DNA of 64,000 nt, from positions 2,021 to 66,020 of the IMG/VR virus record IMGVR_UViG_3300036791_000703. The stretch is one strand, 5' to 3'. The stretch's first letter is position 1, and each line of letters begins with the position of its first letter. The position numbers were made by a program, and so were the translations under genes. The notes under the pieces are model-generated. The model had not been told where the DNA came from. It worked only from the letters and a program-made list of their open reading frames with translations, and did no database searches. Of the stretch, positions 9,401-54,124 are shown in pieces. The DNA comes from a virus. Its lineage: Duplodnaviria; Caudoviricetes.

Positions 9401-9601
9401 CTCAGCGGCATGGTGACTTTCACCTGGACCGGTCAGCCGACCGCCATGGTCAACAGCGCGGCGATCCAGCTGGAAGCGTACAGCGATCAGGGCATCACCA
9501 AGTTCGGCAACATGATGGGTGCACCGCCAGAAGGCACCAATGGCTACACGTGGCAGTACGCCCACGACGGCGTCATCCAGTCTTACGAAGCGCTACCCTA
9601 G
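6404..9601 (+). CDS. Collagen-like fibre/spike protein (1065 aa) with probable beta-helix body
   Basis: GGGAG RBS and GTG start; about 40 Gly-X-Y triplets, then a beta-rich body paralogous to 27836-31462. Confidence 0.85.
6590..6967 (+). repeat. Collagen (Gly-X-Y)n coding repeat
   Basis: About 40 GXY triplets with two short interruptions. Confidence 0.9.
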
Positions 9602-17200: not shown

Positions 17201-17608
17201 CGCGGCAAGTGGGAGACCACGCAGTTCCTGCTCGACAAGGCCAACATGCAGACCGTCGGGTTGTGGCGTGGCGTTGGCCTCGATGTCACGAACGAGCGCA
17301 CCGAGACTGTGACCGCGGGTCCGCACGTGCCGGCATTCAGCAAGCTGCCCGACACCTCGATCCGTCGCAACGGTGCGGCGTCGTGGACGATCAAGCGCTC
17401 GGTCGCCAATAACTGGTCGCGGGTGACGATCCGTGCCCAGGTGCCGCGCACTGCGATCGTCTCGGTGCCGGTCTATGGCCAGAACGTCCACAACGAGCAC
17501 GAGGTGATCGTCGCTGGCACGGCGTGGAAAAATTGGGATGCGTGGAATGGTCCGGCGCCATCCTTCGAAGATGTTCCAATGGCGTTGCACGCGGGAGCCA
17601 CGCCATGA
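14237..17608 (+). CDS. Portal protein (DUF1073/HI1409 family) with C-terminal acidic region and ADP-ribosyltransferase-like domain
   Basis: AYASDWVARKIVEIPAFDATR, ARLYGGA, IHPSRV, ADVPATRFMGREPAGQNATGDSDTRNYYD. C-terminus has LWRG / ASWT / EHEVIV. Start reassigned to ATG 14237 (ATGA overlap). Confidence 0.9.
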   Translation: MNVAAPNILRFPRAWFDSTRDSFQNFLAGFGVPGRDKAVSQFWAYYPLTLDQLEAAYASDWVARKIVEIPAFDATRSWRLWQADKEDQKKIEEAERKYNLQRKLLDALIKARLYGGAAIILGVDQGTFQEELQIDKVGKDDLKFVHVVSRYSLSAGPTVKEITSPWYGHPTYYQRANTVTVSAPGGVEPIGEPTMGQLPGDMLYIHPSRVIRLIGLDYPDIERAPDAWGLTVLQPVADALKAAGMVTSSMATMIAEAKLDIIKVPALTAKMGTAEGTQNVLSRFMQTNVAKSSINALLIDKEEEWERHQLQLSNYDKVLSSYFLLCCAAADVPATRFMGREPAGQNATGDSDTRNYYDRLASDQKVRQTPALRPLDEVLLRSTFGSRDDAWRYDWNALWLMSDAEKADVELKKAQAHQVDVNAGLISPHVLQIGRENSLVESGFLYPGIETAIEEEADWDAEEGVQQARTKGMTDPNDPDAIEHAAKMGKKYGNIDPNDPKTIAAKAKALPKPPPGGGKPNGGGKSNGAARDARNPFRRLARDAPPSVVFTPELHPHDPKTGQWATTVTGDPLQMNPEVATVGGDEWNQKTGARLEFEYARVKPVLDKLASDLVEGQAEDTPDDPDEDEEQPYTPESWDELGDSQQEEAKEKWMEATYSDYEDSEIQSQIDSGYLLEQGKREALQDWKDAPTKHSTTSGETLEWPDWASEAVDEVMEEHAEAGKRIRFTKDQILKALTIDAGKYDEFGGDGSSDPDVDFDDSELTDPAGYDPSEVFPGFEKLEPSSFLKEDERDDIRKAITDAFNKEGESKADKLDASDYIDKSTIQDYQSESWDQYSDKQKWEYAEQYLELGEQESHRETPEPTQVLMPAHFDPMGNPNVDDDYKNDADYKNTKSLGRAMSIARAVQVSKERDIDTDEETVRDMDSTLWRDWKSSSTSPNGKLLQLAIADELGGRLHEGRIGDPAEVEKTKREGNKWGGYDAVKAYIRGKWETTQFLLDKANMQTVGLWRGVGLDVTNERTETVTAGPHVPAFSKLPDTSIRRNGAASWTIKRSVANNWSRVTIRAQVPRTAIVSVPVYGQNVHNEHEVIVAGTAWKNWDAWNGPAPSFEDVPMALHAGATP

Positions 17609-39560: not shown

Positions 39561-41477
39561 ATGGGTACGACCCCCGTCTTCGGCTTGCAATTTATTCAGC
39601 AAGATGATCAGGCGATGCCGGTCATAGGTGCTAATATGGACGTTATCGGAATTATCGGCCCGTCGTCCACCGCCGACCCGGAGATTTTTCCGCTCGATAC
39701 GCCGGTCCTCTTCTTCTCCAACGATACACTCCTGCTTTCGCACCTTGGGTCCGACGGCTACATTCCTGATGCAATCAACGGCATCAATGCGCAGCTGGCG
39801 GACTTCCAGATCGCGGCGCAGATCGTGATCGTGCGGACGGCCTATGGCGACAGTCTGGTCTCGGAGACCGAGACGCTGCAGCAGACCATCGCGCGCATTA
39901 TGGGCGACAGCGTGCTCGGCACCGGGCTCTATGCGTTCCTCAAGGCGCCCAACACGCTCTATTGCACGCCGCGCATCATCGTTGCGCCCGGCTACACCGG
40001 ACAGATGGCGAACTCGCTCGATACCCTGACGATCGAGAATGACGGCGTCGGCTACATCCCGAACCAGACCTACGGCATCACCTTCGCGCTCGGCAACGGC
40101 GAGCAGAACCTGACAACGTCAGTGCTGCCGAAGGGGCATGCGGTCGCCGACAACAACGGCCACATCGGCGAGCAGGAGCTGTTCATCGACAGCTGGGGCG
40201 CGTGGTTCACGGTGGCGCCGGTGGCGACGCTGCCGCCGCCCGACGGCACCCCGGCGCCTGCCTCGCCCGCGCAGGGCCAGATCATCTTCAACGCTCAGCC
40301 GGGTGTCGGCACCAACATCGCGATCAGCTCACAGCCAGTCACTTTCATCGCCCATGGTGGGACGCCCGCTGCGTATCAGGTCGCGCTCGGCGTCAATCTC
40401 GACGAGACGCTCGACAACCTCGTCGCCTACTTGATGGGGACCACGGCGCAGGCCGATCCCAATCTCGGGCTGTGCACCTACGTCAAGGCGGCGTCGACCT
40501 ATCTGAGCCTGTTGATCACCTCGAAGGCGACCGCGGCGGCAGCCAACGACATCACCGTCACCACCAACGTCACCGGCGCCCAGTGCTCGCCGACGCTGCA
40601 GGGTGGCGCCGACGCTGAAATCTCGACCCAGGCGACAGTGCTCTGCACGATGGCGCTCGGCGCCAATCCGGTGTGCGCCAACATGACCGGCGTGCTCGAT
40701 ACCCTGATCGGCCATGGCATCGTCGAGAGCGCCGGCACTTCGATGATCGCCGACGAGAGCTGGCGCACCACGCTCAACAGCCAGCGCCTCATTGGGCTGT
40801 CTGGTGGCGTCAAAATTCAGGACCCGTACTCCGGCGACATCGTGGTGATGCCGTTGGCGCCGCGGATGGCGGGCGCGCTGGTCGCCGAAGATTTCAGGAC
40901 CGGCTACCCGTTCCACTCGTGCGCCAACCGCGCCATCCAGGGTATTGTCGGCCCGGCGCGCTCGATCGCGTTCTCGCTCACCGATGGTGAGACCGAGGGA
41001 CAGGTGCTGCTTGGTGCCAACCTCGGGATCATTGCGCGCGGTCTGATCGGGGTCGAGAGCGCGATCTCGTCCGGCGGTTTCATCCTGATCTCGACCGACA
41101 ACATGGGGGATGATTCGCTCTGGCAAATGTACAACGTGAAAAGAGGGCGCGACTATATTCATCTCTCGCTGATGCCCGCGTTGCGCACCTATCTAGGCCG
41201 CTCTAACATCGATCGTCAAACTGTTACCAACGTCGAGGAAACCATCGCGTCGTTCCTCGCCCAGCTTACGGCGCTTCAGCAAATCCTCGGCTACAAGGTC
41301 ACCTTCAGCGGCAGCCTCAACAGCGCGGAGGAGATCAGGCTCGGGCATCTCACCGTGAGCTTCGCGGCCGAAGAGCCGCCGGTGCTCAAGTTGATCACCA
41401 CTATGTCAGCTCGCTACAAGCCGGCGATCGACGCCATGGTCTCGCAGCTCGCCGAGCAGCTGGTGTTCAGCGGCTGA
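39561..41477 (+). CDS. Contractile tail sheath protein (P2 FI-like) with nested insertions
   Basis: VIGIIG....AD...FPLDTPV, TGLYAF...PRIIVAPG, S.ANR.I.GI, NSAEEIRLG.L. Confidence 0.92.
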   Translation: MGTTPVFGLQFIQQDDQAMPVIGANMDVIGIIGPSSTADPEIFPLDTPVLFFSNDTLLLSHLGSDGYIPDAINGINAQLADFQIAAQIVIVRTAYGDSLVSETETLQQTIARIMGDSVLGTGLYAFLKAPNTLYCTPRIIVAPGYTGQMANSLDTLTIENDGVGYIPNQTYGITFALGNGEQNLTTSVLPKGHAVADNNGHIGEQELFIDSWGAWFTVAPVATLPPPDGTPAPASPAQGQIIFNAQPGVGTNIAISSQPVTFIAHGGTPAAYQVALGVNLDETLDNLVAYLMGTTAQADPNLGLCTYVKAASTYLSLLITSKATAAAANDITVTTNVTGAQCSPTLQGGADAEISTQATVLCTMALGANPVCANMTGVLDTLIGHGIVESAGTSMIADESWRTTLNSQRLIGLSGGVKIQDPYSGDIVVMPLAPRMAGALVAEDFRTGYPFHSCANRAIQGIVGPARSIAFSLTDGETEGQVLLGANLGIIARGLIGVESAISSGGFILISTDNMGDDSLWQMYNVKRGRDYIHLSLMPALRTYLGRSNIDRQTVTNVEETIASFLAQLTALQQILGYKVTFSGSLNSAEEIRLGHLTVSFAAEEPPVLKLITTMSARYKPAIDAMVSQLAEQLVFSG

Positions 41478-41490
41478 CGGGGAGACAGCG

Positions 41491-42015
41491 ATGGCTGAGA
41501 CGATCCTCACGTTGGATCAGGCCAACATGTTCTGTGGTCGCGAGCCGGGCGACGTGAACAATGGCCTCTACCTCGAATTAACCGAGGTCAAGCTGCCGGC
41601 GATGAACGAGCAATACATCGATCATCGTGCCGGTGGTACGCCGATCGCGATCGAAATCGACACCATGTTTGCCAAGCTTGAGTCGACGTTCCAGCTGCTC
41701 GGCTGGAACGTCAACACGGCAACCATGATCGGAACGTGGATGGCAGAACAGAATGTTTTTTGGGTTTACGGTTTGGCGCGAGATCGTATGACCGGGCAGC
41801 CATCTCGTGTCACTGCCAAGATGCGCGGCAGGCTTGGCCTCGCCGAGCCGCAGAACTGGAATAGGTCTGGGGCGCATCATTGGAATTATGCGATTAAAGG
41901 TATTATCGCCTACGATCTGGTCGTCGGTAATACCTCAATATATTCATGGGACTTTTTCGCAAACAAACTTGTCATCGGCCCGGTGGCGGGAAATTCGCCG
42001 CAACAGTTCTTCTGA
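41491..42015 (+). CDS. Tail tube protein 1 (P2 FII-like)
   Basis: ANMF...EVKLP...HRAGG...KLE.TF...MRGRL...WDFFAN; follows the sheath gene. Confidence 0.9.
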   Translation: MAETILTLDQANMFCGREPGDVNNGLYLELTEVKLPAMNEQYIDHRAGGTPIAIEIDTMFAKLESTFQLLGWNVNTATMIGTWMAEQNVFWVYGLARDRMTGQPSRVTAKMRGRLGLAEPQNWNRSGAHHWNYAIKGIIAYDLVVGNTSIYSWDFFANKLVIGPVAGNSPQQFF

Positions 42016-42037: not shown

Positions 42038-42628
42038 ATGGCTGAGACCATTCTCACGCTTGACCAAGCCAACATGTTCTGCGGGCGCGAACCCACGGAC
42101 GTGAATAACGGTCTGTACTTGGAGCTGACCGAATTCAAGCTGCCGGCGATGAACGACCAGTTCGTCGACCACCGCGGCGCTGGCGTGCCGATCTCGATTG
42201 AAGTCGATACCATCTTCGCCAAGCTGGAGTCGACGTTTCAGTTGATCGGCTGGAACGTCCAGACCGCGACGCTGATCGCGTCGTGGATGGCCGAGCAGAA
42301 TGTGTTCTGGATTTACGGGCTGGCGCGCGATCGGATGACCGGCGAGTCGTCACGCGTCACCGCGAAGATGCGAGGTAAGCTCGGTCTTGCCGATCCGCAG
42401 AACTGGAACAGGTCGGGTGCCCAGCATTGGAATTACGCGATCAAGGGCATCATCTCCTACGACCTCGTGATCGGAAACACCTCGGTGTACAGCTGGGATT
42501 TTTTCGCCAACAGATTTGTCGTTGGCACCTGGGATCGCAATTCCGACACCAACGCGATCCTCAACATTCCGATCGCCACCGCGGCGCCGATCTTGGTCGG
42601 TCCGGTCATCGAGCCGGGGACGCCGTAA
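42038..42628 (+). CDS. Tail tube protein 2 (P2 FII-like)
   Basis: GGAG RBS and ATG at 42038; tandem paralog of tube 1. Confidence 0.9.
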   Translation: MAETILTLDQANMFCGREPTDVNNGLYLELTEFKLPAMNDQFVDHRGAGVPISIEVDTIFAKLESTFQLIGWNVQTATLIASWMAEQNVFWIYGLARDRMTGESSRVTAKMRGKLGLADPQNWNRSGAQHWNYAIKGIISYDLVIGNTSVYSWDFFANRFVVGTWDRNSDTNAILNIPIATAAPILVGPVIEPGTP

Positions 42629-42631
42629 GCC

Positions 42632-43138
42632 ATGGCGCTCGATACGCTTCGCAAGACCGGCGGTTGGTGCGTCGAACTGTATGTGCCGCTCAAATGGGGC
42701 GCGCGGACTGTCGACACCATCGAGATCAAGGCGCCGACCATTGGCCTTCTCACCCGGTGGCAACGTGGCGACATTCCGTCGTCGATGGCGCTATTGGCCG
42801 AGCTGTCCGACATTCCGGAGTCGATCCTCAACACCATCACCTATCCGGACGCCGACCGCGTTCTGCTGGCGATGTTCAACGTGGTGCCGAAGCCAATCCA
42901 GTCCGACTTCTCAAACGGCGTGAGACCGCTGTCGACACCGCCTGATGAGGCGCCGGAGCCGGCGCCGGGATCGCGGCCGTTGGCGGTCGACGATCCGCGC
43001 TTCCCGAAGCACGAAGGCACGCTGTCACAGCCAGAACCGGAGCCTGTGCCCGCGCCCGCGCCTGCGCCCGCGCCAGCTTCGACCGGGGGGATTGGTGTTT
43101 CGATGGATGGGCCATCGGTAATCAGAAAGGTTGTCTGA
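42632..43138 (+). CDS. Tail assembly chaperone (gpE-like)
   Basis: L.VPL...VDTIEIKAPT...LLAELS......I...D pattern; lies between tube and tape measure. Confidence 0.8.
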   Translation: MALDTLRKTGGWCVELYVPLKWGARTVDTIEIKAPTIGLLTRWQRGDIPSSMALLAELSDIPESILNTITYPDADRVLLAMFNVVPKPIQSDFSNGVRPLSTPPDEAPEPAPGSRPLAVDDPRFPKHEGTLSQPEPEPVPAPAPAPAPASTGGIGVSMDGPSVIRKVV

Positions 43139-46100
43139 CGTGTCGGATGTCGACTATAGCGTCAAAATAACCGGGACCGACGAGACCAAGCAGGCATTCG
43201 AGTCGGCGGCGCGCAACGCGACCGACGCCTCGAAGATGATCAACACGCAGTTCGCCAATCTAACGCAGAGCGTCGACAAACAGACTGCGGCGATCGAGAA
43301 GCTTGCCAAGAAAGCAGCAGGCAAGGGAGACGAGGACCTCAGCGGTGCGTTCGGTGCGGCCGGAAAATCCGTCGAAGGGTTTTCTGATGGGCTGAAAAAA
43401 GCGCTGTCGCCAGCCGTCGTCATCGCTTTTGTCGAGAAATCGATCGAGGCGTTCGGTGCGATGGAGGACATGCAGAATCGCATGATCGCCACCGGCAAGG
43501 TGAACAAGCAGCAGTCAGAGGAGGTGCTTAAAGTATTAAAAGAAATTGCGATCTTCACCGGCCAGAGCCGTGACGTGATCGGTGATCATTATACCAAGGT
43601 GCTTCAAAATAATGAAAAGCTGATCGGCTCCCTCAAGGACATGGAGCTGTACGCCCATATGGCGAAGATTCCTTTTGAAGCTGCCTTGGATGTCGGTCAG
43701 GCGGCAGTGTCAGGTGGCTTGGACCCCAAGGACCTACCGCAATACTACGCCCGATTGGCGCAGGGCGTAGAGGTTTCCGGTAAGGCAACCGCAACGGCCA
43801 CCACTGCGGCACTCGATAGGCTGAAGAGCCTGCAGCTAATCGGGCCGGAGATGGAAAAGCAGGTGACCTCTGTCATCGCAGCGACCACCACCGCTTCGGT
43901 GACTCCGGAAAAGGCCGCCAGCAATCTGGCCACGGTGATGGAGAGGCTCTACCACAAAACCCCCGGCAGTCCGTTGGCTAATCTGGGGGTCGAATTTCAG
44001 CAACTCACCGACCATGTTATCAATTTCGATCAGTTTGCCGACAAAGCGCTGCAGAAGTATGGCCCTGGAAATCCGGCTTTCAAATCGTTGTTTCAAAGTG
44101 ATGAGATTGGCAGGGAGTGGATTCAAAATCTCGCTGATGCGAAGAAATCTGGAAAACTACAAGAGGCCGCCAAGGACGTTCAGACGTTAGAAAACTGGCC
44201 GATGTACAAAGAGAGCCAGACCAAGCTCCTCAATGAAGCGAAGGTTGAGATCAGCGAGGTGGCGGATGAAGTCGGCAAGATGGTGAATGCCGGCGCGATC
44301 CTCAAAGACCTCTCTTCCGGCATCCATGCGCTGACGTTGGCAATCAGGGAGTTCAACGCGCTCGACACCAACATGAGCAGCATCATGGGGGCGGGCGCTC
44401 AGATCGTGACCGGCAAGCGCGGCACTCGCAACATGCCGATCACGACACCGCAGCCGTCGGTGATGCCCAACATTGGGCCAGGAGGCGGCGGTGGTGGTGG
44501 TGGTGGTGGCGGCGGCGGGTCTGGGCTGCCGAGAATTCCCGTCCCGCCCCAGCCCCAGCATTTCACTGGCGGTGGTGGTAGCGGAGGCGGAGGCGGCGGC
44601 GGTGGCTGGCGACCTGACGCACTCGGGGTCGGCGGCTGGCCATCCTCATCGAACATCGACGATCGCCGCAATCAGTCGCCCTATGGCGGCGGCTCTAGTG
44701 GTCCTGGCGGCGGGGCGCAATACTTCACCGGCTCCGGTGGTAGTCAGCAAGCCGCTGTGACGGCCATGCAGACCGCCAACGATGCCGACGTGCACGCCAT
44801 GGCGATGCGCGGCGAGACCGGTGGCGGTGCGGGCGCTGGCGGATATGGTTGGCCGGGCGCGATACAGGGTGGTCCAGGCGATGCCGGTGGTGGCGGTGGC
44901 ACTGGCTGGGGTCCAGGCGGTGGCCATGGCGGTGCCGGCTATGGCTATGGCGGCGGCTTCCGTCCCGGTATCGGCGGCGCTCGCGGTCGCCCGGGCAGCG
45001 TCGGCGGTCGTCGCAGTCGCACCGGTCCCGGCGCTTCTGACACCACCACATCGACCGACAGCACCAGTCGGCCGGGGACGCTGCCGTGGCCGACCAATGC
45101 GCCGGCCGGGCGGATCGCCGGCACTACGACGGCGACCGGCTATGGCCGCGCCGAGCAGATGACACCGCACGATCTCGGCGGCACCACCACGACCGTGACC
45201 GGCTCGCAGACCTTGAAGCAAGCGCGAGCTGAAATGTTCAGGCAGATGGATGCCGATCCCAAGCTAAAGAATGATGTGATGCGCGCGATCCGCGCCGAGA
45301 ATAATAATCCACAGCCTGTGCTCGAAGCGTTCGCTAACCGCTATGCCGCCGACAAGAGCAGCAGCGTCTACAGCGCGCTTCACGGTGGGTTTTTCGGTCC
45401 CGTCAATCGCAACAGCGAAAGATATCGTTCGCCGCTTTCTGGGGAAGAGGAGAAAGCTGGCCTTGCTGCCTATGAAGCCGTGAAGAGCGGCAGCAACATG
45501 ATCGATTACCGCACCGATCAGGGCATGTGGCAGCCGGGATATTATGAGCATCCCTACGCCAAAAAGATTGGCGCCGAAGCGGCACGGTTGAAGCAGATCG
45601 GCGGTGAGTGGTTCAGCGATATGGGGCCGGATCAGCGGGCATGGGCTGATCGAATGCGGGCCGGTGGCGGTGAGACGACCACCACGTCGACTGGGCCAGG
45701 ACAACAAGCCGGTACGGCGCAGTGGCCCGGCGAGGGTGTCGTAGCAGGCGGCGGTGGCGCCTATGCAGGTCCACAGGCTGGCGCGATGAATGCGCCGGGT
45801 GGCAAGCCGCCGGAAGCTTTCATCATGCACCACACCAGCGGTGGCGGTACGCCGCAGGGTGTCGTCGAGGATTGGCGGCGCAACCGCCCCGGCATCGGCT
45901 CGCAGTACATCATGGATCGCGAAGGGCGGGTTTGGGACACCGCGAAGGAGCTTGGCTATGGCGGCACCAGCCACATGCTCACCGGCAAGGGCGAGGGTGC
46001 TGGTCTGTCGAATCGCAACGTCGTCGGAATGGAGCGGATCGGACAGAGCAACAAGGACTGGACGCAGGCACAAATCGACGCCGTCGGTCCTTGGATGGAG

Positions 46101-46613
46101 CAGCACTATCCTGGCATCCGGATGCTTGGACACGGTCAGGTCAACCCAGGCCATCGCGAGGCGGACGAAGGCAGGGTGATGATCGACGCGGTCAATCGGT
46201 ACCGCGCGACGCATTCTAAGTTAGCGGGTCCTTCCCCGTCCGGTGGTGCGCGTCTCGACAAGAACGCCCCTCCCGCTCCGTACATGCACGAAATGGAGGA
46301 TGTCGGGAAACAGCGAACCGATGCCGGTGGGGACCATGAGCCGGCGGCAATCCCTGACAAGTACAATCGACTCGGGCAGCATGAGAAATGGCCACCGGAG
46401 AAGCCGTCAACCGATGAGGGTCATGCTGGCGACGAGAATATCCGCCGCCAGCGCAGTGAGCTGTCGAAGCCGATCAAGACGACGATGAACGTCACCCACC
46501 CACGGCAGCATGAGAAGACGGCGCCACCGGATCGGCACAACTCGCGCATCGCTTCGATCGCACAGAGCCGTCATGACCGCCATCGCCACGGTGGTGACAT
46601 CGGATATGCGTGA
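43131..46613 (+). CDS. Tape measure protein 1 with SleB-like and N-acetylmuramoyl-L-alanine amidase domains
   Basis: About 430-aa helical N-terminus, Gly-rich linker, IRAE...ANRY...FGP domain, amidase motifs IMHHT / YIMDREG / H / GME / GHG. Start TTG 43131 or GTG 43140. Confidence 0.85.
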   Translation: MSDVSDVDYSVKITGTDETKQAFESAARNATDASKMINTQFANLTQSVDKQTAAIEKLAKKAAGKGDEDLSGAFGAAGKSVEGFSDGLKKALSPAVVIAFVEKSIEAFGAMEDMQNRMIATGKVNKQQSEEVLKVLKEIAIFTGQSRDVIGDHYTKVLQNNEKLIGSLKDMELYAHMAKIPFEAALDVGQAAVSGGLDPKDLPQYYARLAQGVEVSGKATATATTAALDRLKSLQLIGPEMEKQVTSVIAATTTASVTPEKAASNLATVMERLYHKTPGSPLANLGVEFQQLTDHVINFDQFADKALQKYGPGNPAFKSLFQSDEIGREWIQNLADAKKSGKLQEAAKDVQTLENWPMYKESQTKLLNEAKVEISEVADEVGKMVNAGAILKDLSSGIHALTLAIREFNALDTNMSSIMGAGAQIVTGKRGTRNMPITTPQPSVMPNIGPGGGGGGGGGGGGGSGLPRIPVPPQPQHFTGGGGSGGGGGGGGWRPDALGVGGWPSSSNIDDRRNQSPYGGGSSGPGGGAQYFTGSGGSQQAAVTAMQTANDADVHAMAMRGETGGGAGAGGYGWPGAIQGGPGDAGGGGGTGWGPGGGHGGAGYGYGGGFRPGIGGARGRPGSVGGRRSRTGPGASDTTTSTDSTSRPGTLPWPTNAPAGRIAGTTTATGYGRAEQMTPHDLGGTTTTVTGSQTLKQARAEMFRQMDADPKLKNDVMRAIRAENNNPQPVLEAFANRYAADKSSSVYSALHGGFFGPVNRNSERYRSPLSGEEEKAGLAAYEAVKSGSNMIDYRTDQGMWQPGYYEHPYAKKIGAEAARLKQIGGEWFSDMGPDQRAWADRMRAGGGETTTTSTGPGQQAGTAQWPGEGVVAGGGGAYAGPQAGAMNAPGGKPPEAFIMHHTSGGGTPQGVVEDWRRNRPGIGSQYIMDREGRVWDTAKELGYGGTSHMLTGKGEGAGLSNRNVVGMERIGQSNKDWTQAQIDAVGPWMEQHYPGIRMLGHGQVNPGHREADEGRVMIDAVNRYRATHSKLAGPSPSGGARLDKNAPPAPYMHEMEDVGKQRTDAGGDHEPAAIPDKYNRLGQHEKWPPEKPSTDEGHAGDENIRRQRSELSKPIKTTMNVTHPRQHEKTAPPDRHNSRIASIAQSRHDRHRHGGDIGYA

Positions 46614-48958
46614 TGGTTGAGATCGTAGAAAACAAAGTCACTATCGGCGCCAGCGTTGACATCAAGAACGCGTTCGACAGCGCCACCAAGAACTTCGTTG
46701 AGTATTTCAAGACCACCGATCAGTTTTGGAAGAACGCAACCCAGCGCGTCAAGGAGCACGAGGAGAACGCCCACAAGCTGGCGAAGCGCGTCGGCGGCAA
46801 GGGCAAGGAAGACATCGCTGGGGCATTCGGCACCGCCGCCGCAGGTTTGACCGGTTTTCTGACTGGCTTCATCGCCGGTGCCGTCAAAGAGGCGGAGCAC
46901 GGCATCATCGATGCCGTCGGGGCCATCATTACGGCTGGCGCCAATGAGGAGGATGCCGACAACCGATTGCTGTCGACCGGTAAGGTTACCCTTGATGGGC
47001 TCAGGCGATTGCACGATCGGTTTCACGAGTTTGGGCCGACGGTCGGCAAGTTCAGCAACGAGCTGAAAGACGAATACCTTGGGCTGATTCAAACCACTCC
47101 GAAGCTGTTGCCGTATTTCGAGACGATGCAGCGAATGAGGTTTGCCACCCAGGCGTCATGGCAATCCATAATGGCGTTGTCCAATCAGGCGTTGATTGCC
47201 GGTGTCAAACCGGCGGACATGCCGGATTATTTGAGGCGGGCAGGGGCAGCGTTTCTCAAGCTCGGTGACGATGGTGTCCAGGCCGGCACCAAGGTGACCG
47301 AGGCGTTTCGCCATGTCCAGGTCACCGGCACTGCTGCGATGAACGATGTCAATTCGATTCTCGCCGGCATCACGCCAGCTTTTCAAAACAACCCGATGAG
47401 GGCGGCCGACGCCCTTAGTCAATTCATCAACGAAGCCGCCAAGGGCACCAACGATTCCAAAACTATGGACTTGATGCGGCAGATGCAGAGCGGCCAGATC
47501 ACGCCGATCAAGTTTTTCGACGACATGATGGAGCGGCTCGATCCTTCGGGTAAGGACTTCCTGCTGCGGATGCAGGCCGACGATCTCACCAGAGACCTCG
47601 TGCAGAATTGGCAGACACAGCGCGATGTCATTCATGCGATAGCCGACAGAATTGTTACGCCGTTTCGTGAGTGGCCGATCTTCAGCGAGTCGCTGTCGCG
47701 TGAACTACGTGAGTTCGCGGAAGCGCTTCACGAGCTTTCTCTTGTGCTTAATACGTTGCTTCCAGTGACCAACACCATCAGGGCCGCGAAGGACGCGCTC
47801 CATTCCATAGTCGAGGACTTCAAGAGTGTAAACGCTGCCAAGGATGCGCTGGTGGAGGGTGTGACTGGCGGGAAACTATGGGAGTTATATAAATCACTTT
47901 TGGGAATAAATCCGGCGGTTTTACAGTATCAAGCGGCCAAAGCCATATGGAATAATTTAGTTCGCACGCCGCCGCCACCGGCGCCACTGCCGGAAGCTCC
48001 GCCTGGGACCTACCCGTCGGTCGAGGGCGAAGGGAAGCCGGTGCGCTTCACCGGCTCCGACGACAATGAGGCCGACGTTCACGAGATGGCGATGGCCGCT
48101 GAGCGTGGCGGCGCCGCGTTCACACCCGGTGCCGGTGAGTCTCCATGGCCGATGTTCGCAGGCGTGCCTGTGGGCGACTACGGCAGGGGTTTTGATTATG
48201 GTCCCGCCGGTGTCAGTCCCGCGGGTGGCGCTGGCGCGGGTGGGTACTACGGCGGTGCCGGCGAAGGCTACGATCAACCAAGTTCAACACCGTCAGCGCC
48301 GTCAACGCCGTCAGCATCACCATCATCGACTTCTCCATCGCCAACCACGCCATCATCACCGGCGGCACCTGCCGTCGGCGGCGACCAGTACAAGTCCGAC
48401 GTAGATTGGCTGCAGTCGCGTGGTGGTCACGATGCCCGTGACAGCAGTGAGCCCGGCGGCATCAAGCCTGAAATGGCCGCGCGGCTGCGAGCCGCCGGTG
48501 AAGCTTACGAGAAGCAGACCGGGAAGAAGGCGAACTTCGGCGAGATGTTTCGCGACAAGGCGCGGCAAGAAAAATACTACGCCGCCTATAAGAGTGGTCG
48601 CGGCGGTCTCGCCGCTCGTCCCGGCTATTCCCGCCATGAGCAGGGTGAGGCGACAGACGTTCCGCGCGGCGGGTTTCTTGATTGGCTTCATGGCGGCGGG
48701 GCAGGCCAGCATGGCTTAGGGTTCTTGTCTGGCAAAGCCTTTCAGATGGACCCTGTTCACGTTCAGATGGATCGCGGCTGGAAGGGGCAAAAAGCTCCTT
48801 CTGCGGAAGCATCCAAGCCGATCAAGGTCTCGATGGAGGTTGAGCCGCCGCCACGCTGGCAGCTCGAACGCGCGGCCCGCTACACCGATCAACTCGGCAA
48901 CCGTCATGCTGAACGTCAGCAGCAAGCGAAAGGTGCCGGCGACATAGGATTTGCCTGA
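46610..48958 (+). CDS. Tape measure protein 2 with M15 (D-Ala-D-Ala-type) peptidase domain
   Basis: Paralogous helical N-terminus; FR....Q...AARPGYSRHEQGEATD...DPVHVQ. Confidence 0.85.
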   Translation: MMVEIVENKVTIGASVDIKNAFDSATKNFVEYFKTTDQFWKNATQRVKEHEENAHKLAKRVGGKGKEDIAGAFGTAAAGLTGFLTGFIAGAVKEAEHGIIDAVGAIITAGANEEDADNRLLSTGKVTLDGLRRLHDRFHEFGPTVGKFSNELKDEYLGLIQTTPKLLPYFETMQRMRFATQASWQSIMALSNQALIAGVKPADMPDYLRRAGAAFLKLGDDGVQAGTKVTEAFRHVQVTGTAAMNDVNSILAGITPAFQNNPMRAADALSQFINEAAKGTNDSKTMDLMRQMQSGQITPIKFFDDMMERLDPSGKDFLLRMQADDLTRDLVQNWQTQRDVIHAIADRIVTPFREWPIFSESLSRELREFAEALHELSLVLNTLLPVTNTIRAAKDALHSIVEDFKSVNAAKDALVEGVTGGKLWELYKSLLGINPAVLQYQAAKAIWNNLVRTPPPPAPLPEAPPGTYPSVEGEGKPVRFTGSDDNEADVHEMAMAAERGGAAFTPGAGESPWPMFAGVPVGDYGRGFDYGPAGVSPAGGAGAGGYYGGAGEGYDQPSSTPSAPSTPSASPSSTSPSPTTPSSPAAPAVGGDQYKSDVDWLQSRGGHDARDSSEPGGIKPEMAARLRAAGEAYEKQTGKKANFGEMFRDKARQEKYYAAYKSGRGGLAARPGYSRHEQGEATDVPRGGFLDWLHGGGAGQHGLGFLSGKAFQMDPVHVQMDRGWKGQKAPSAEASKPIKVSMEVEPPPRWQLERAARYTDQLGNRHAERQQQAKGAGDIGFA

Positions 48959-49494
48959 TGCCCAACAGTGGACAAGCTGGCCTTCCCGACTTCAGAAGCA
49001 CCCAGCCCGACGGCACGGGATGGTGGGCGCCGTCGCTCAACGATGGTGGTGGTCGGCCGGTGCTCTACAGTTGGGGATTGATCATGTTCGAAATCTTCCC
49101 GCTCAACATCCACGAAGTCGACCACGAGACTGCGACCGACTGGGCGCACAAGGAGATCGCTGGCGCGCCGATCTATCGCGAGTGGGTTGGCGAGAACGAC
49201 GAGCTGCTGCACTTTCGTGGGCGCATCTTCCCCTACCGCATCGGCGGCATGAGCGATCTGGAGCTTTTCGAGTCGATGCGCCAGAAGGGCGTCGTCAACG
49301 CGATGTTGCGCGGCAATCCGGCGATGATGATCGGCTGGTTCGCCTGTGAACGGTTGGTGCGCTCGCACACGTTTCTCTCGACCCAGGGCGTCGGCCAACA
49401 GGTCACCTTCGAGGCGGTGATGGCGCGCTTCCCGGTGCCGGACTCGTCGTCCTACTTTTCGCAGATTTGGCAAACCACGGGAGCGGCAGCCTGA
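48958..49494 (+). CDS. Tail protein (P2 gpU-like)
   Basis: WG...FE.....H.....W....I.G.....E.VG..E...F.G..FP...G.....GW pattern. Confidence 0.88.
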   Translation: MPNSGQAGLPDFRSTQPDGTGWWAPSLNDGGGRPVLYSWGLIMFEIFPLNIHEVDHETATDWAHKEIAGAPIYREWVGENDELLHFRGRIFPYRIGGMSDLELFESMRQKGVVNAMLRGNPAMMIGWFACERLVRSHTFLSTQGVGQQVTFEAVMARFPVPDSSSYFSQIWQTTGAAA

Positions 49495-49766
49495 TGGCGA
49501 TCACCGGTTTCGAGCTGTGGCAGGTGGGGAGCGAGTACGTCACCGCCGACCTCATCGTATGGAAGCGGTACAAGAACAAGGCGATCGGCATCGTCGAGAC
49601 CATGCTCGATGCCAATCCGCAGCTCGCGTTCTGCCACCGCGTGTCGCCGTTCATTCCGGTCGGCACCTTCGTGCGGGTGCCGATCGATCCTGATCTTATC
49701 GCCGGCAAGCCGCAGGTGAAGAGCCAGGACAGTCTCTGGACCGACAAGCAGGGGTACACCGTCTGA
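49494..49766 (+). CDS. Tail protein X (P2 gpX-like)
   Basis: DLIVWKRY...VE.MLDANP.LA...IPVGT.V.VP...LW. Confidence 0.88.
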   Translation: MAITGFELWQVGSEYVTADLIVWKRYKNKAIGIVETMLDANPQLAFCHRVSPFIPVGTFVRVPIDPDLIAGKPQVKSQDSLWTDKQGYTV

Positions 49767-51025
49767 TGGCGCTCACCGTCACGCTTGCCGACCCCACCAT
49801 CTTCGATCCCACTGGCAGTCCCTACGCGAACGCCGCCGATCCACAGCAAGCCAATCGATTGCGTGCTGATGTCGGCATTCAATTCGCCGGCATGTGGATC
49901 ACCGCGAAGACCTTGCCGTTTCTGATCAGCATGCGGCTTTTGACTGGCGCCCACATCGAAGACTACCAGTGCGAGATCGAACTCGATGATCGCGACGGCA
50001 CGCTGCCGATCCCGCCGATCGACTCGCCGCTCAATGTCATCATCGGATGGCGCGGTGAGGACTCGCCGATCGTCTGGGAAGGCGTCGTCCACGACATCGA
50101 GCACGGTTTCGGCCGCAAGCAGGGCGGTCGTCGGATGTGGGTGCATGGCTTCGGCGCCGAGCAGCTCAAGGGCGGCAAGGAGCCACAATACAATCACTGG
50201 GGTGAAGGTGCTCCCGATGGCCAGGAGAAGGGACAGATGATCCCGGTGTCGACGGTGCTGAAGGCGGCGGCGCAAGAGGCTCACCACAGTATCGAGGTGC
50301 ACCCGGATTTCGATGTAACGGCGATGCAGCAAGACTACTGGCAGCAGGCGGGTGAAAGTTATTACCACTTTGCCAAGCGCCTTGCCGATCAGATGGGCGC
50401 GGTGTTCCGCGTCAAGGGCGGCACCATCGGTCAGTTCACCAAGCAGGGTCAGAACATCGACGGCACACCGACACCAAACGTGACTGCGGTGTGGGCAAAG
50501 AACCTGATCGGCTGGCGGGTGCGGCCGTTGTCGGCACGGCCGATGTGGGCGAAAACCGGCGGCCACTTTTTCGATGTCAGCGGCGGGATGTGGAATAAGG
50601 TTACACAGGCGGTCCAGTCGCAGGCGCTCAACCTTGCCTCTTCTGAATTCCAGCGGTCGCAACCGGCACCCAATCAAGAGCAGGCCACCGCGGAGAACTC
50701 AGGTGATGACGACGGCATGGGCCAGCAGCAAGGACCCGGTCGCATCGTCATCAACGGTGAACCGAACGCGCAAGGCAACTGCTTAGTGCAGCTGGTCGGC
50801 GCGCGGCCCGGTGTCGACGGCACCTATTGGTGTTCGACCTGTGAGCACATCTACAGCCGCCAGGGCTACGTGACATGGTGTGATGTCAACGCCGTCCAGA
50901 TCACCGGCGGCTCTGACATCTACAAACTGCAAGGCGCCATCCCGCTGCCGCCGCCACGGCCGTCAAATGCGCCGGGTGGGCCGACGACACCGTTGCCGCC
51001 ACCACCGCTGCTAGGCGGCGGTTAA
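49766..51025 (+). CDS. Baseplate hub / late control protein (P2 gpD-like)
   Basis: EIELDDRDG...P, QAGES..F..RLA..GA..VKGG, GARPGVDG.Y....H. Confidence 0.9.
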   Translation: MALTVTLADPTIFDPTGSPYANAADPQQANRLRADVGIQFAGMWITAKTLPFLISMRLLTGAHIEDYQCEIELDDRDGTLPIPPIDSPLNVIIGWRGEDSPIVWEGVVHDIEHGFGRKQGGRRMWVHGFGAEQLKGGKEPQYNHWGEGAPDGQEKGQMIPVSTVLKAAAQEAHHSIEVHPDFDVTAMQQDYWQQAGESYYHFAKRLADQMGAVFRVKGGTIGQFTKQGQNIDGTPTPNVTAVWAKNLIGWRVRPLSARPMWAKTGGHFFDVSGGMWNKVTQAVQSQALNLASSEFQRSQPAPNQEQATAENSGDDDGMGQQQGPGRIVINGEPNAQGNCLVQLVGARPGVDGTYWCSTCEHIYSRQGYVTWCDVNAVQITGGSDIYKLQGAIPLPPPRPSNAPGGPTTPLPPPPLLGGG

Positions 51026-51480: not shown

Positions 51481-51551
51481 TCATAAAAAGTAGTTGACTT
51501 GTTTGTGTTAGTCAACCACTCTGATTGCGTCTCAAGGGAAGGCGCAATCAG

Positions 51552-52262
51552 ATGTGGGATATCGAAAACAAGCGAGTCAGCGCAGAGGCTTGGGCATGGT
51601 TCAACATGCTAGTCCGTTGCGCGAATGTGGAGCGAGACTGGCATAAACGCGGCATCACGGTCTGCGATCGGTGGCAGGTGTTTGCCAACTTCCTCGCCGA
51701 CATGGGCCGTCGCCCAGGACCTGAATTTTCTCTCGACCGGAAAAATAACGACGGCAACTACGAGCCCGGCAACTGTCGTTGGGCGACCGCGTCTGAGCAA
51801 ATGAAGAATAGGCGGACTTGGAAAAAGTCTGAAGCAGAAGTTGCCGCATGGATCGCTACCAATCGCGCCCTTGCTTTAGAGGGCAAGGGTGTCTGGGCGA
51901 AGGGTCTCAAGCGTCACTGGTCCCCGGAAGCGAAGGAGCGTTATCGCCAAAAACGATGGGGGCAGAAAGAGCAAGGACTTGGAATCAGCTCGCCAGCGGC
52001 ACGAGAGAAATTATCGCAGCGCAAGCGGGCGCCAGTCTCAGATGAGACTAAGCAAAAGATCAGTGCTGCGCAAAAAGGGCGGAAGCTCAGCGACGCTCAC
52101 GTTGCAGCACTGCGCGGTGCGTATGATGGCGAAGCCGGTCAAGAGCGTCGCACCAAAATGACAAAGGTGATGACGGGAAGAAAGGTCTCTGACGAGACGC
52201 GCCAAAAACAAAGTGAGGCTGCTAGGGTGCGTTGGGACCGCCACCGATCATCAGGGGAATGA
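51552..52262 (+). CDS. HNH-type homing endonuclease with NUMOD3-like repeats
   Basis: RGITVCDRW..F..F..DMG.RP....LDRKNNDGNYEPGNCRWAT; SDETKQKIS and SDETRQKQS; AT-richer codons. Confidence 0.85.
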   Translation: MWDIENKRVSAEAWAWFNMLVRCANVERDWHKRGITVCDRWQVFANFLADMGRRPGPEFSLDRKNNDGNYEPGNCRWATASEQMKNRRTWKKSEAEVAAWIATNRALALEGKGVWAKGLKRHWSPEAKERYRQKRWGQKEQGLGISSPAAREKLSQRKRAPVSDETKQKISAAQKGRKLSDAHVAALRGAYDGEAGQERRTKMTKVMTGRKVSDETRQKQSEAARVRWDRHRSSGE

Positions 52263-54124
52263 CCATGCTTGAGAAGCCGACGCTCACCTCGGACACCTTC
52301 GAGTGCCGCCACGGCACCTTCACCATCTTCAACGAGGACGAACTCGTCGGGATGTCGCTCGCGGTGTACGGCGAATATTCCGAGGGCGAGGTCGTCGTCT
52401 TCGAAAAGTGCCTTCGCGAAGGTCACGTCGCGATCGATGTCGGCGCCAACATCGGCGCCTTCACTGTGCCGATGGCGAAGCTGGTTGGCGACACCGGGGC
52501 GGTGATCGCATTCGAGGCGTCGGTGCAGAACGTCTCGCTGCTGGAAAAGAACATCAAGCAGAATGACCTCATCAACGTCATAGTAATTCCGGCTGCCGCG
52601 AGCGACACCACCGGCACGGTGAAGGTCTCCAAGCAGGATGCGCTGCATGCCTACACCCGGCCCGACATCAACGTCGGTGAGCTGGAAGTGCCGTGCCAGA
52701 CCATCGACAGCCTGGAGCTGGGCAAGTGCAACTTCATCAAGATCGATGTCGATCGCCACGAGCTGCAGGTGCTCAAGGGCGCCGAGCAGACGATCGCGAA
52801 ATTCAAGCCGATCATCTATGTCGAGAACGAGGATCAGGGAAACAGCGAGGCGCTGATCGCGTGGCTGGTCGAGCACGGCTATCGGCTGTACTGGCACCGG
52901 CCGTCGCACTTCAACCTGAAGAACTTTCGTGGTGTGCCGCCGGAGCGCAATCTGTTTGGCGTGCTGATCTCGATCATGATGCTGTGCGTCCCCGACAACG
53001 ACTGGAAGTGGGAGATCAACGGGCTCGACGAGGTCGCCGACATCCGCCAGGACGACGACATGTTCAACCGCGAGATCGCGCGCTACCAGCGGATCACCGC
53101 GAAGTTTCCCGACGATCTGATGTCGCGGCTGCTCACCGCGCACTACCTTAACCTGATGCAGCGCTCGGACGAGGCGATGGCGCTGATCAACGAGAACCTT
53201 GCCGCCGATCCAGCGCACAAGGCGTCGCTCAACATCAAAGCGCTGCTCGATCTGCAGGCCGGCCGCTGGCATGACGGCTGGAAGGGCTACGAGCTGCGCT
53301 ACGGCCACGCCAACAAGCACATGTTCGGTGGCGCGCGCGAGCACACCGCTCCACGCTGGGACGGCAAGCCGACCGAGGAGCCGCTGCTAATCTGGTCCGA
53401 GCAGGGCTTCGGTGACCAGATCATGTTCGCGCGGTTCTACGAGGACGTGATCACTCTCGCCCCTAACGCGGTCTTCGAGGTGCAGCCCGAGCTGTTCGAA
53501 TTGTTCGAGACCTCGTTTCCGCATCTCGAAATCTATCGGGTGCGCCGGACGCTGCCGTATTACGCGCTGCAGCTGCCGTTGCCGTCGGTGCCGGTGGTAC
53601 TCGACGCCGATGCGGCGATGATCATGGAGAGCGGTGATTCGTATCTCAAGGTCAATCCCATGATCACCGCAAACTGGCGCGGCCACGGCAATCATCCGTT
53701 CGCCCACGGCCGTGATCCGCTCAACGGTGCCCGCATCGGACTGTGCTGCGTCGGGTCGCTGACCAGCGAGCGGCCCTACACCCGCGATATCCCGAGCGAG
53801 CTGATCGCGCCGTTAGTCAAGCAGCATGGACCGTTCTTCTCGCTCGAACATTCCGGGCAGTTCGAGAGCTTCGCCACCACTGCCGGTGCGATCATGGCGC
53901 TCGATCTCGTCATCACCGTCGATACCTCGATCGCGCATCTCGCGGGTGCGCTCGGCAAGCCGGTGTGGCTGTTGCTGTCCTACGATCCGGACTGGCGCTG
54001 GGGGCTGACCGGTGAGACCAGCATCTGGTATCCCTCGATGCGCATTTTCCGCCAGCCCAAATTCCGCGACTGGAAATCGGTGATCGCGAACGTCAGCGCC
54101 GCCCTTGAGGAACGCTACGCGTGA
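52259..54124 (+). CDS. FkbM-family methyltransferase - TPR - glycosyltransferase (GT-B, GT9-like) fusion
   Basis: IDVGANIG...AFEA, FIKIDV...E..VLKG; TPR-like helices; EQGFGDQIMFARF; LDLVITVDTSIAHLAGALGKP...WRW...WYP. Confidence 0.9.
   Translation: MTMLEKPTLTSDTFECRHGTFTIFNEDELVGMSLAVYGEYSEGEVVVFEKCLREGHVAIDVGANIGAFTVPMAKLVGDTGAVIAFEASVQNVSLLEKNIKQNDLINVIVIPAAASDTTGTVKVSKQDALHAYTRPDINVGELEVPCQTIDSLELGKCNFIKIDVDRHELQVLKGAEQTIAKFKPIIYVENEDQGNSEALIAWLVEHGYRLYWHRPSHFNLKNFRGVPPERNLFGVLISIMMLCVPDNDWKWEINGLDEVADIRQDDDMFNREIARYQRITAKFPDDLMSRLLTAHYLNLMQRSDEAMALINENLAADPAHKASLNIKALLDLQAGRWHDGWKGYELRYGHANKHMFGGAREHTAPRWDGKPTEEPLLIWSEQGFGDQIMFARFYEDVITLAPNAVFEVQPELFELFETSFPHLEIYRVRRTLPYYALQLPLPSVPVVLDADAAMIMESGDSYLKVNPMITANWRGHGNHPFAHGRDPLNGARIGLCCVGSLTSERPYTRDIPSELIAPLVKQHGPFFSLEHSGQFESFATTAGAIMALDLVITVDTSIAHLAGALGKPVWLLLSYDPDWRWGLTGETSIWYPSMRIFRQPKFRDWKSVIANVSAALEERYA

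Follow-up and report, generated by a model that had tools for sequence, protein, structure and literature searches.

Two tandem genes in the tape-measure slot

This study concerns two adjacent genes in the tail module of an uncultured soil phage, represented by the linear IMG/VR virus record IMGVR_UViG_3300036791_000703 (66,020 bases, estimated to be 71% complete). The stretch analysed, hereafter the window, comprises 64,000 bases of this record (positions 2,021 to 66,020) and all coordinates are counted from its first letter. Contigs of two soil metagenomes cover at least 93% of the record. The guanine-cytosine (GC) content of the window is ~0.58-0.65 and no tRNA genes were found in it. Both genes lie on the + strand; the first encodes tape-measure paralog 1, hereafter copy 1, of 1160 amino acids (aa) at 43131..46613, and the second encodes tape-measure paralog 2, hereafter copy 2, of 782 aa at 46610..48958. 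Four related loci (L003 to L006) were obtained by a degenerate-pattern scan of IMG/VR using an alignment of both copies; their orthologs of copy 1 are 1130-1206 aa long and those of copy 2, including one additional protein (P0004), are 735-776 aa long.

A BLASTP comparison of copy 1 with copy 2 gave 101 identities in 414 positions (24%, E 3e-30) over the N-terminal ~410 residues, together with separate high-scoring segment pairs for an N[DE]ADVHxMAM block (26/52, E 5e-5) and for the C-terminus, from SKPIK to GDIG[YF]A (19/54, E 1e-3). FTG, VHxMAM, SKPIK and a terminal IG[YF]A were present in both proteins in a regular-expression scan. The similarity is far above chance and the two proteins are true paralogs. 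An initial annotation of the window, made by reading the sequence alone, had described a shared N-terminus as well as shared internal and C-terminal motifs in the two open reading frames (ORFs), and these alignments bear out both descriptions.

The two copies are built on the same three-part plan, namely a core, a linker rich in Gly, Pro and Ser that carries one or two cassettes, and a conserved C-terminus. In copy 1, the N-terminal tape-measure core (residues 1-430; 43131..44420), which is the part homologous to the copy 2 N-terminus in the alignment above, is followed by a Gly-rich linker (44433..45191) in which the motifs FTG, WPSSSNIDDRR, NDADVHAMAM and AGYGYGGGF were recognised by alignment and motif scan. 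The linker leads into a proximal cassette of an unannotated family (45192..45677) and a distal cassette assigned to Amidase_2, the N-acetylmuramoyl-L-alanine amidases (45801..46169), and the protein closes with a conserved C-terminal segment of 60 residues ending in GDIGYA (46431..46610; 73-93% identity in the five phages, i.e. the window and L003-L006). In copy 2, the N-terminal tape-measure core (residues 1-440) occupies 46610..47929, the linker motifs in common with copy 1 (FTG, NEADVHEMAM, FTPGAGE; alignment, BLASTP and motif scan) lie at 48041..48154, a single VanY-like M15 metallopeptidase domain forms the cassette (48470..48784) and the conserved C-terminal 50 residues end in GDIGFA (48806..48955; 49-78% identity in the five phages). 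The linker blocks [RY]F[TS]G, N[DE]A[DE]VHxMAM and FTPGAGExPW are common to both copies, and WPSSSNIDDRR and AGYGYGGF occur in copy 1 only. The C-terminal 50-60 residues are strongly conserved within each copy and differ between the copies, with both ending in IG[YF]A.

The GTG start codon of copy 2 overlaps the stop codon of copy 1 in the window (GTGA), and an overlap of this kind (GTGA, ATGA or TGATG) is found in all five phages; the stop codon of copy 2 likewise overlaps the start of the next gene, gpU, in four of the five. The start of copy 1 itself is uncertain by three codons, because the GTG start of the four relatives reads GTC in the window; an upstream TTG remains at 43131, directly abutting a purine-rich ribosome-binding stretch. 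A fusion of the two proteins by read-through or frameshift was considered and is unlikely, given that the terminal IG[YF]A is conserved on both proteins in 5/5 phages. Neither copy has a hydrophobic stretch of the kind expected for a membrane helix; the best 19-residue Kyte-Doolittle means are 1.1-1.7, with windows of 1.6 or more only in copy 2 of L003.

Kinship with tape-measure proteins

On the + strand of the window, a head module (large terminase, portal, protease and major head protein) is followed by a P2-like contractile-tail module, the first part of which consists of baseplate W-, J- and I-like genes and fibre genes. The subsequent order, as assigned with Pfam and PHROG, is sheath, FII-type tubes, chaperone-like gene, copy 1, copy 2, gpU and gpD-like gene. 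In view of this surrounding gene order, copy 1 and copy 2 together fill exactly the slot of the tape measure, i.e. between the chaperone and hub genes, and the order is the same in L003-L006.

The core of copy 2 was modelled with AlphaFold2 (AF2) on a 10-row alignment covering both copies. The model is all-helical, with residues ~120-360 at a predicted local distance difference test score (pLDDT) of 65-96. A Foldseek search of the BFVD database with this model returned 11 matches at E<=1e-3, comprising five proteins with the name tape measure, one with the name minor tail protein and five nameless ones; a helical tape-measure-like fold was therefore found, limited to the first 430-440 residues.

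When 1.84 billion representative proteins were searched with a profile built from the ten N-terminal cores, only 66 matched at E<=1e-3, six of them at E<=1e-30. A Pfam scan then took 40 of the 61 profile matches that fall outside the close family (the 21 left out are mostly short); PhageMin_Tail (PF10145) was present in 17 of these 40 distant matches and TMP_3 (PF20155) in 12, and a few also have SLT, CHAP, M15_4, M23, Glucosaminidase or Phage_lysozyme2 domains. By position, fold and transitive homology, the assignment of both copies to a divergent tape-measure family is well supported.

The lineage is rare. There was no tblastn match to the copy 2 core in 50,697 cultured-phage records and no blastn match to the locus among cultured phages, so that no cultured relative is found at the tape-measure gene. 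A single-protein scan of viral contigs confirmed none of 3 candidates, a metagenome scan none of 596, and a scan of 185,579 prokaryote species genomes none of 233; this last scan gave no prophage relative and hence no clue to the host.

Conservation, duplication and selection

In all four relatives, a chaperone-like gene (170-172 aa) is followed by an ORF of 1130-1206 aa, an ORF of 735-773 aa and gpU (178-182 aa), and a profile search of the whole records of L005 and L006 detected exactly two places in each. The pair of adjacent paralogs is thus present in 5/5 related phages. In a maximum-likelihood tree built from the cores, copy 1 and copy 2 form separate clades (support 100/98), each with the mirrored topology ((window,(L003,L004)),L005,L006), and five outgroup proteins, P0011 among them, fall outside the joint clade (100/100). 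This split and the mirrored topologies point to one duplication before the five phages diverged, followed by parallel descent of the two copies.

The ratio of nonsynonymous to synonymous substitution rates (dN/dS) for the L003/L004 cores is 0.25 in copy 1 (dS 0.75) and 0.23 in copy 2 (dS 0.62), and the ratios for the C-termini range over 0.05-0.55, with 0.05-0.34 for the last 60 residues of copy 1. Judged from these ratios, both copies are under purifying selection. Both frames are open in the comparison of the window with each relative, despite divergence to 32-52% identity. The cores are 33-47% identical among the phages, with the exception of L003/L004 (74-77%), as against identities of 85-92% (sheath), 80-97% (tube), 62-87% (chaperone), 75-93% (gpU) and 66-87% (gpD) in the flanking genes; as the cores diverge far more than the flanking genes, the pair appears as a fast-changing island between conserved neighbours.

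The integrity of the locus was examined with Logan contigs from a second soil sample with a different study code (X2); another sample (X1) is maybe the source of the record and is not independent. One X2 contig of 2509 bases spans 46469-48977 with a single difference and bridges the junction of copy 1 and copy 2. Two X2 contigs over copy 1, in the region covered by 43274-48977 of the window, carry 37 and 29 letter differences in addition to 9 and 6 gaps. The contrast of 66 differences with 1 in this sample suggests that a recombination boundary lies close to where the two genes meet.

Enzyme cassettes in the window

For the distal cassette of copy 1, the amidase named in the initial annotation is confirmed: Amidase_2 (PF01510) scores 33.5 and 33.2 bits, above its cut-off of 26. 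The curated score was reached only when the segment was scanned alone, and the full-length scan missed the domain. Against the solved phage lysozyme 6su5 only the N-terminal His-containing block of the amidase aligns, and weakly (E 0.069).

The cassette of copy 2 had been read as an M15 peptidase. VanY (PF02557) scored 17.3-20.2 bits on copy 2 (E 5e-4 to 4e-3), below the curated cut-off of 25. The protein carries S-x-H-x-x-G-x-A-x-D at residues 674-683 (S-R-H-E-Q-G-E-A-T-D) and D-x-x-H at residues 714-717 (D-P-V-H), which we take to be the metal-ligand pattern of Peptidase M15B / VanY (H-x6-D and a distal H). In a protein atlas, 18 of 30 matches to the cassette are VanY clusters, and there are weak PHROG matches to endolysin and tape-measure families (E 2e-4 to 2e-3). 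The motifs and the atlas clusters speak for the M15 reading and the Pfam score stays short of its threshold; the domain is probably a VanY/M15 peptidase.

The proximal cassette of copy 1, by comparison, lost the SleB-like identity first given to it. It has no Pfam match at E<=1, none of 53 members of its family that were scanned with Pfam has a match in this domain, and a six-frame search of the whole record with PF07486 detected nothing at E<=10, with controls matched in 4 of 14 genomes; searches of PDB sequences with profiles of the cassette gave nothing credible. The SleB or Hydrolase_2 label failed every matching test made with PF07486 and is unsupported. An AF2 model of the cassette (mean pLDDT 57.6), for which a PDB fold search returned nothing below E 2.4, was rejected as uninformative, and one neighbouring cluster in the language-model atlas, in which 30% of the members have Hydrolase_2, is a lead only. 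What the searches did detect is a family of 62 small proteins (P0072-P0133; 86-296 aa; E<=0.01, best 1.6e-34) with invariant T-D-Q-G and F-x-G-P blocks. One member is named from a Bradyrhizobium genome and one also has Amidase_2. We regard this family as a candidate new family of cell-wall enzymes. For the earlier proposal that the pair would cut glycan, amide and peptide bonds of the cell wall, the amidase domain holds and the peptidase is likely, and the glycan part, which depended on the SleB label of the proximal domain, is unconfirmed.

Cassette exchange and length constraint

The content of the cassette slots changes from phage to phage. In copy 1, the proximal slot holds the unannotated domain in four phages and Phage_lysozyme2 (PF18013) in L006, where the curated score is reached (61.5 bits against a cut-off of 28.2); the two domains are not similar by hhalign (probability 0.15%). 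Three domain types occur in the distal slot: Amidase_2 in the window, an M15_4-like one in L005, whose 24.3 bits narrowly miss the cut-off of 25, and a third in L003, L004 and L006. In copy 2, the cassette is VanY-like in the window and M15_4-like in P0004, the copies of L004 and L006 have a conserved middle region and no recognisable enzyme was found in those of L003 and L005. Neither this third distal domain (L003, L004 and L006) nor the copy 2 middle region of L004 and L006 has a Pfam, PHROG or PDB match; tentatively, they may resemble an M15-type peptidase and a double-psi-barrel '3D' domain.

The M15_4-like cassettes of L005 copy 1 and P0004 copy 2 are 75% identical (114/153, E 7e-79) despite surrounding cores of which only about a quarter is identical, from which it appears that the same cassette has moved between the paralogs. 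Comparison of the sequences thus demonstrates that the cassettes, putative wall hydrolases by their domain assignments, have been exchanged both between lineages and between the two copies. Differences between the copies had been placed in the cassettes between linker and C-terminus, and the exchange among the relatives agrees with this.

Total lengths remain narrow despite the swaps, at 1130-1206 aa for copy 1 and 735-782 aa for copy 2, with a copy 1/copy 2 ratio of 1.46-1.64 across the phages, and the stretch of copy 2 between core and C-terminus measures 238-272 aa whatever its content. This conservation, seen in six sequences, is suggestive of a length-constrained, ruler-like protein.

Neighbouring genes

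All genes with assigned functions that flank the pair in the tail module lie on the + strand. The tail sheath (638 aa; 39561..41477) matches phrog_23 (E 6e-37) and is 86-92% identical to the sheaths of L006 and L005. It is followed by two tandem tube genes. The second (196 aa; 42038..42628; Phage_tube FII, 48.3 bits) is the conserved copy, with 80-97% identity to the tubes of L003-L006, which have a single tube gene of 196 aa each; the first is an extra, window-specific paralog (174 aa; 41491..42015; Phage_tube FII, 47 bits against a cut-off of 22.4). The two are 81% identical, with the first shorter (174 vs 196 aa) and different at its C-terminus. Contigs of another run (X3) join 41468 or 41479 straight to 42038 and so bypass the first tube gene, the shorter side of the joint being only 29 letters. 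The tube duplication looks recent and variable, beside the ancient duplication of the tape measure.

The tail assembly chaperone-like protein (168 aa; 42632..43138) was assigned by position, with a Phage_TAC_7 score of 15.7 bits that lies below the cut-off of 25, and is kept at 62-87% identity in 4/4 relatives. Its residues 90-148 are rich in Pro and acidic residues. The ORF list holds no longer -1 frame extension of this ORF; the overlapping frames end at 42945 and 42923, and because they stop this early the usual G/GT-type frameshift product is not evident. Downstream of the pair, the gpU-like tail protein (48958..49494; Phage_P2_GpU, PF06995, 61.7 bits against a cut-off of 27.5) has an ATG that overlaps the stop codon of copy 2 (TGATG), and the gpD-like baseplate hub protein (49766..51025) matches the tail protein family phrog_52 (E 2.6e-19), with Phage_GPD at 15.6 bits, below its cut-off.

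Directly after the hub gene lie an HNH endonuclease (51525-52262, E 3e-27) and a protein of 630 aa that contains a methyltransferase domain (52232-54124, E 7e-34). A 1065-aa ORF at 6404-9601 with collagen-like and tail-fibre PHROG matches (E 2e-28) lies between the genes for the terminase and those for head morphogenesis, an uncommon location for a fibre gene. The portal match at 13619-17608 (phrog_146, E 4e-108) spans only residues 225-684 of a 1329-aa frame, leaving ~645 C-terminal residues without an assigned function.

Interpretation of the pair

The comparisons demonstrate paralogy, tape-measure kinship, module position, conservation of the pair, purifying selection, stop/start overlap and cassette exchange. 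At the level of the sequences they indicate one ancient whole-gene tandem duplication of the tape measure in uncultured soil phages with P2-like contractile tails, after which both copies appear to have been kept functional. The two tandem paralogous tape-measure-type proteins of the initial annotation are in this way upheld by position, by fold and profile matches, by the pair in 5/5 phages and by the exchange of cassettes, the survey of relatives having detected two tape measures in 4/4 of them with cassettes swapped among them.

In the explanation that we favour, copy 1 and copy 2 would be made together by translational coupling, a single chaperone would handle both and a mixed bundle of the two would fill the lumen of every tail. 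Each copy would dock to the hub or tip complex by its own C-terminus, both would be expelled ahead of the DNA at contraction, and the expelled cassettes (the amidase and the proximal domain of copy 1, the M15 peptidase of copy 2) would open the wall locally at different bonds. We give an even chance to this combination of joint translation, a lumen in the same tail, docking by separate C-termini and co-expulsion with wall cutting at the point of entry. Copy 2 would probably be the length ruler and copy 1 probably mainly the carrier of enzymes; copy 2 is the better candidate for the ruler because its 735-782 aa are close to the single 761-aa ORF in the slot of Microcystis phage Mae-JY30. The stop/start overlaps, the presence of a single chaperone, gpU and gpD, and the mirrored phylogenies lean towards co-assembly in one tail. 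A stricter version, in which the tape measure would be an obligate hetero-oligomer of the two co-evolving paralogs (for example of 2+1 or 3+3 chains) that docks by private C-termini and shuffles hydrolase cassettes at constant chain lengths, falls somewhat short of an even chance and is put forward tentatively.

A number of observations weigh against this explanation. Curated tape-measure scores were not reached, TMP_2 of Pfam scoring 16.7-18.6 bits (18.6 on the copy 1 core) against a cut-off of 30.2; three tape-measure families of PHROG match copy 2 weakly and below threshold (E 5e-3 to 8e-3), and no PHROG family matches copy 1. As the direct matches to curated families are below threshold, membership in the tape measures rests on the transitive and fold evidence, and the AF2 model of the copy 2 core is confident only at residues ~120-360 (mean pLDDT 66.8). 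Two of the three cassettes of the window have no enzymatic role at curated thresholds. As regards selection, dS values for the pairs other than L003/L004 are 1.1-1.7, near saturation, so that only the L003/L004 ratio is reliable. The 1.46-1.64-fold difference in length sits awkwardly with two chains running through the same tube, unless the 390 additional residues of copy 1 form a compact part or are located outside it. Lastly, if the tip of Pseudomonas phage Pa193 is a guide, there would be three equivalent sites for one protein, and two different C-termini would have to share these sites or use others.

One alternative is that the paralogs are alternative rulers, each tail containing a homo-oligomer of one of them, with two populations of tails that differ in length (~1.5-fold) and in enzyme payload; such a mixture might serve as bet-hedging against variation in the host or in the state of its cell wall. 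The consistent length ratio, the separate conservation of length in each copy and the distinct C-termini, which could compete for one set of docking sites, would all fit such an arrangement. The overlapping stop and start codons, however, indicate joint rather than alternative expression, and there is only one chaperone, one gpU and one gpD. A tail with copy 2 alone would moreover have no recognisable enzyme in L003 and L005, and the literature searched describes no phage that has two tape measures. We consider this explanation unlikely.

An equally improbable account has only one copy as the ruler in the lumen and the other, most likely copy 1, as a lysin or scaffold derived from a tape measure, either attached at the baseplate or tip by its C-terminus or acting in assembly or lysis, and not retained in the tube. 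The agreement in size between copy 2 and the slot ORF of Mae-JY30 is compatible with this account, as is the fact that two cassettes are always on copy 1 and sometimes none on copy 2, and the uneven differences from the second soil sample suggest different constraints on the two copies. Yet the full core of copy 1 is under purifying selection as strong as that of copy 2 (0.25 vs 0.23), its C-terminus is the more conserved of the two, and its length varies by only ~3% around the mean despite the swaps, a pattern suggestive of a constraint on length.

An assembly chimera of two strains, or a decaying duplicate with no function, is scarcely credible: the locus is of metagenome origin and its Gly-rich repeats do attract spurious joints (one contig joins 44601 to 48220 with a shorter side of only 21 letters and was treated as repeat noise), but the arrangement is common to five independent contigs, a contig of the second sample bridges the junction, both frames are open across 32-52% identity and dN/dS is well below 1. 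The sequence outcomes that the initial annotation had named as refuting it were not observed: the N-terminal similarity is real, neither copy evolves neutrally (dN/dS 0.23-0.25 in the closest pair) and no sign of a chimera was seen.

Relation to known systems

Textbooks describe a single-copy tape measure as the ruler of long phage tails, and in structural models this one protein docks at the tip as three identical chains. In phage P2 the genes of the tail block are FI-FII-E/E'-T-U-D. The window resembles P2 in having sheath, FII-type tube, chaperone-like gene, tape-measure slot, gpU and gpD-like hub in the same order, and differs in that two paralogs occupy the slot of the single T gene and in that the chaperone ORF showed no -1 frame extension.

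The nearest cultured phage by its sheath (40.7% identity, 74% covered) is Mae-JY30 (PP438422.1). The layout of the module around the slot is the same and its single 761-aa ORF is near the size of copy 2; in contrast to the window, there is one ORF in the slot, annotated as hypothetical, and it has no BLASTP similarity to the core at E<=0.01. The closest outgroup is P0011 (973 aa; E 1.7e-33), from the library of representatives, which shares the architecture of the copies: its core is followed by a linker block of the FTPGAGE type and an M15_4-like cassette (37% identity to the one in L005 copy 1), and its C-terminus closes with IGFA. It differs from the copies in falling outside both of their clades (100/100) and in its intermediate length. 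A complete 96-kb phage (L008, reached via P0012) has a cassette-like stretch inside a single 906-aa ORF and no match to the core profile.

Hydrolases embedded in tape measures are already known; what appears new here is the conserved paralogous pair. The tape measure of mycobacteriophage TM4 reportedly contains an embedded cell-wall hydrolase (PMC1796659) and that of Caulobacter phage phiCbK, gp95, a CHAP domain (PMC3556154). Like the proteins described here, both have a muralytic module inside the tape measure that presumably attacks peptidoglycan once ejected. Both are single tape measures of siphophages, unlike the present conserved pair with up to three cassettes that are mobile between lineages and between paralogs. 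In Pseudomonas myophage Pa193, the last 19 residues of three chains of the tape measure gp41 bind the tail tip and hub (PMC11456595). A short docking segment at the C-terminus that includes the very last residues fits the conserved IG[YF]A ends, and by this analogy the C-termini of both copies are likely docking elements; the difference is that Pa193 has one protein with three identical C-termini and the window has two distinct C-terminal sequences, each conserved.

Evolution of tape measures by internal duplication has been described (PMC3271669). No report of a phage with two paralogous tape-measure genes was found in full-text literature, a scope outside which most subscription journals and supplements fall.

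Implications for tail biology

The retention of two paralogs raises the questions of how the lumen is filled, which chain measures the tail and how docking occurs on a three-fold hub. If both proteins are in one tail, this would be the first hetero-oligomeric tape measure described, as far as the literature search shows, and if the hetero-oligomer is obligate, the rule of one ruler per tail would be broken, with length measurement and payload delivery split between chains. The traffic of cassettes provides a natural catalogue of exchangeable cell-wall enzymes, including an unannotated family with 62 small homologs, and the cassette slots show where tape measures tolerate foreign domains, which is useful for the engineering of phage tails and tailocins.

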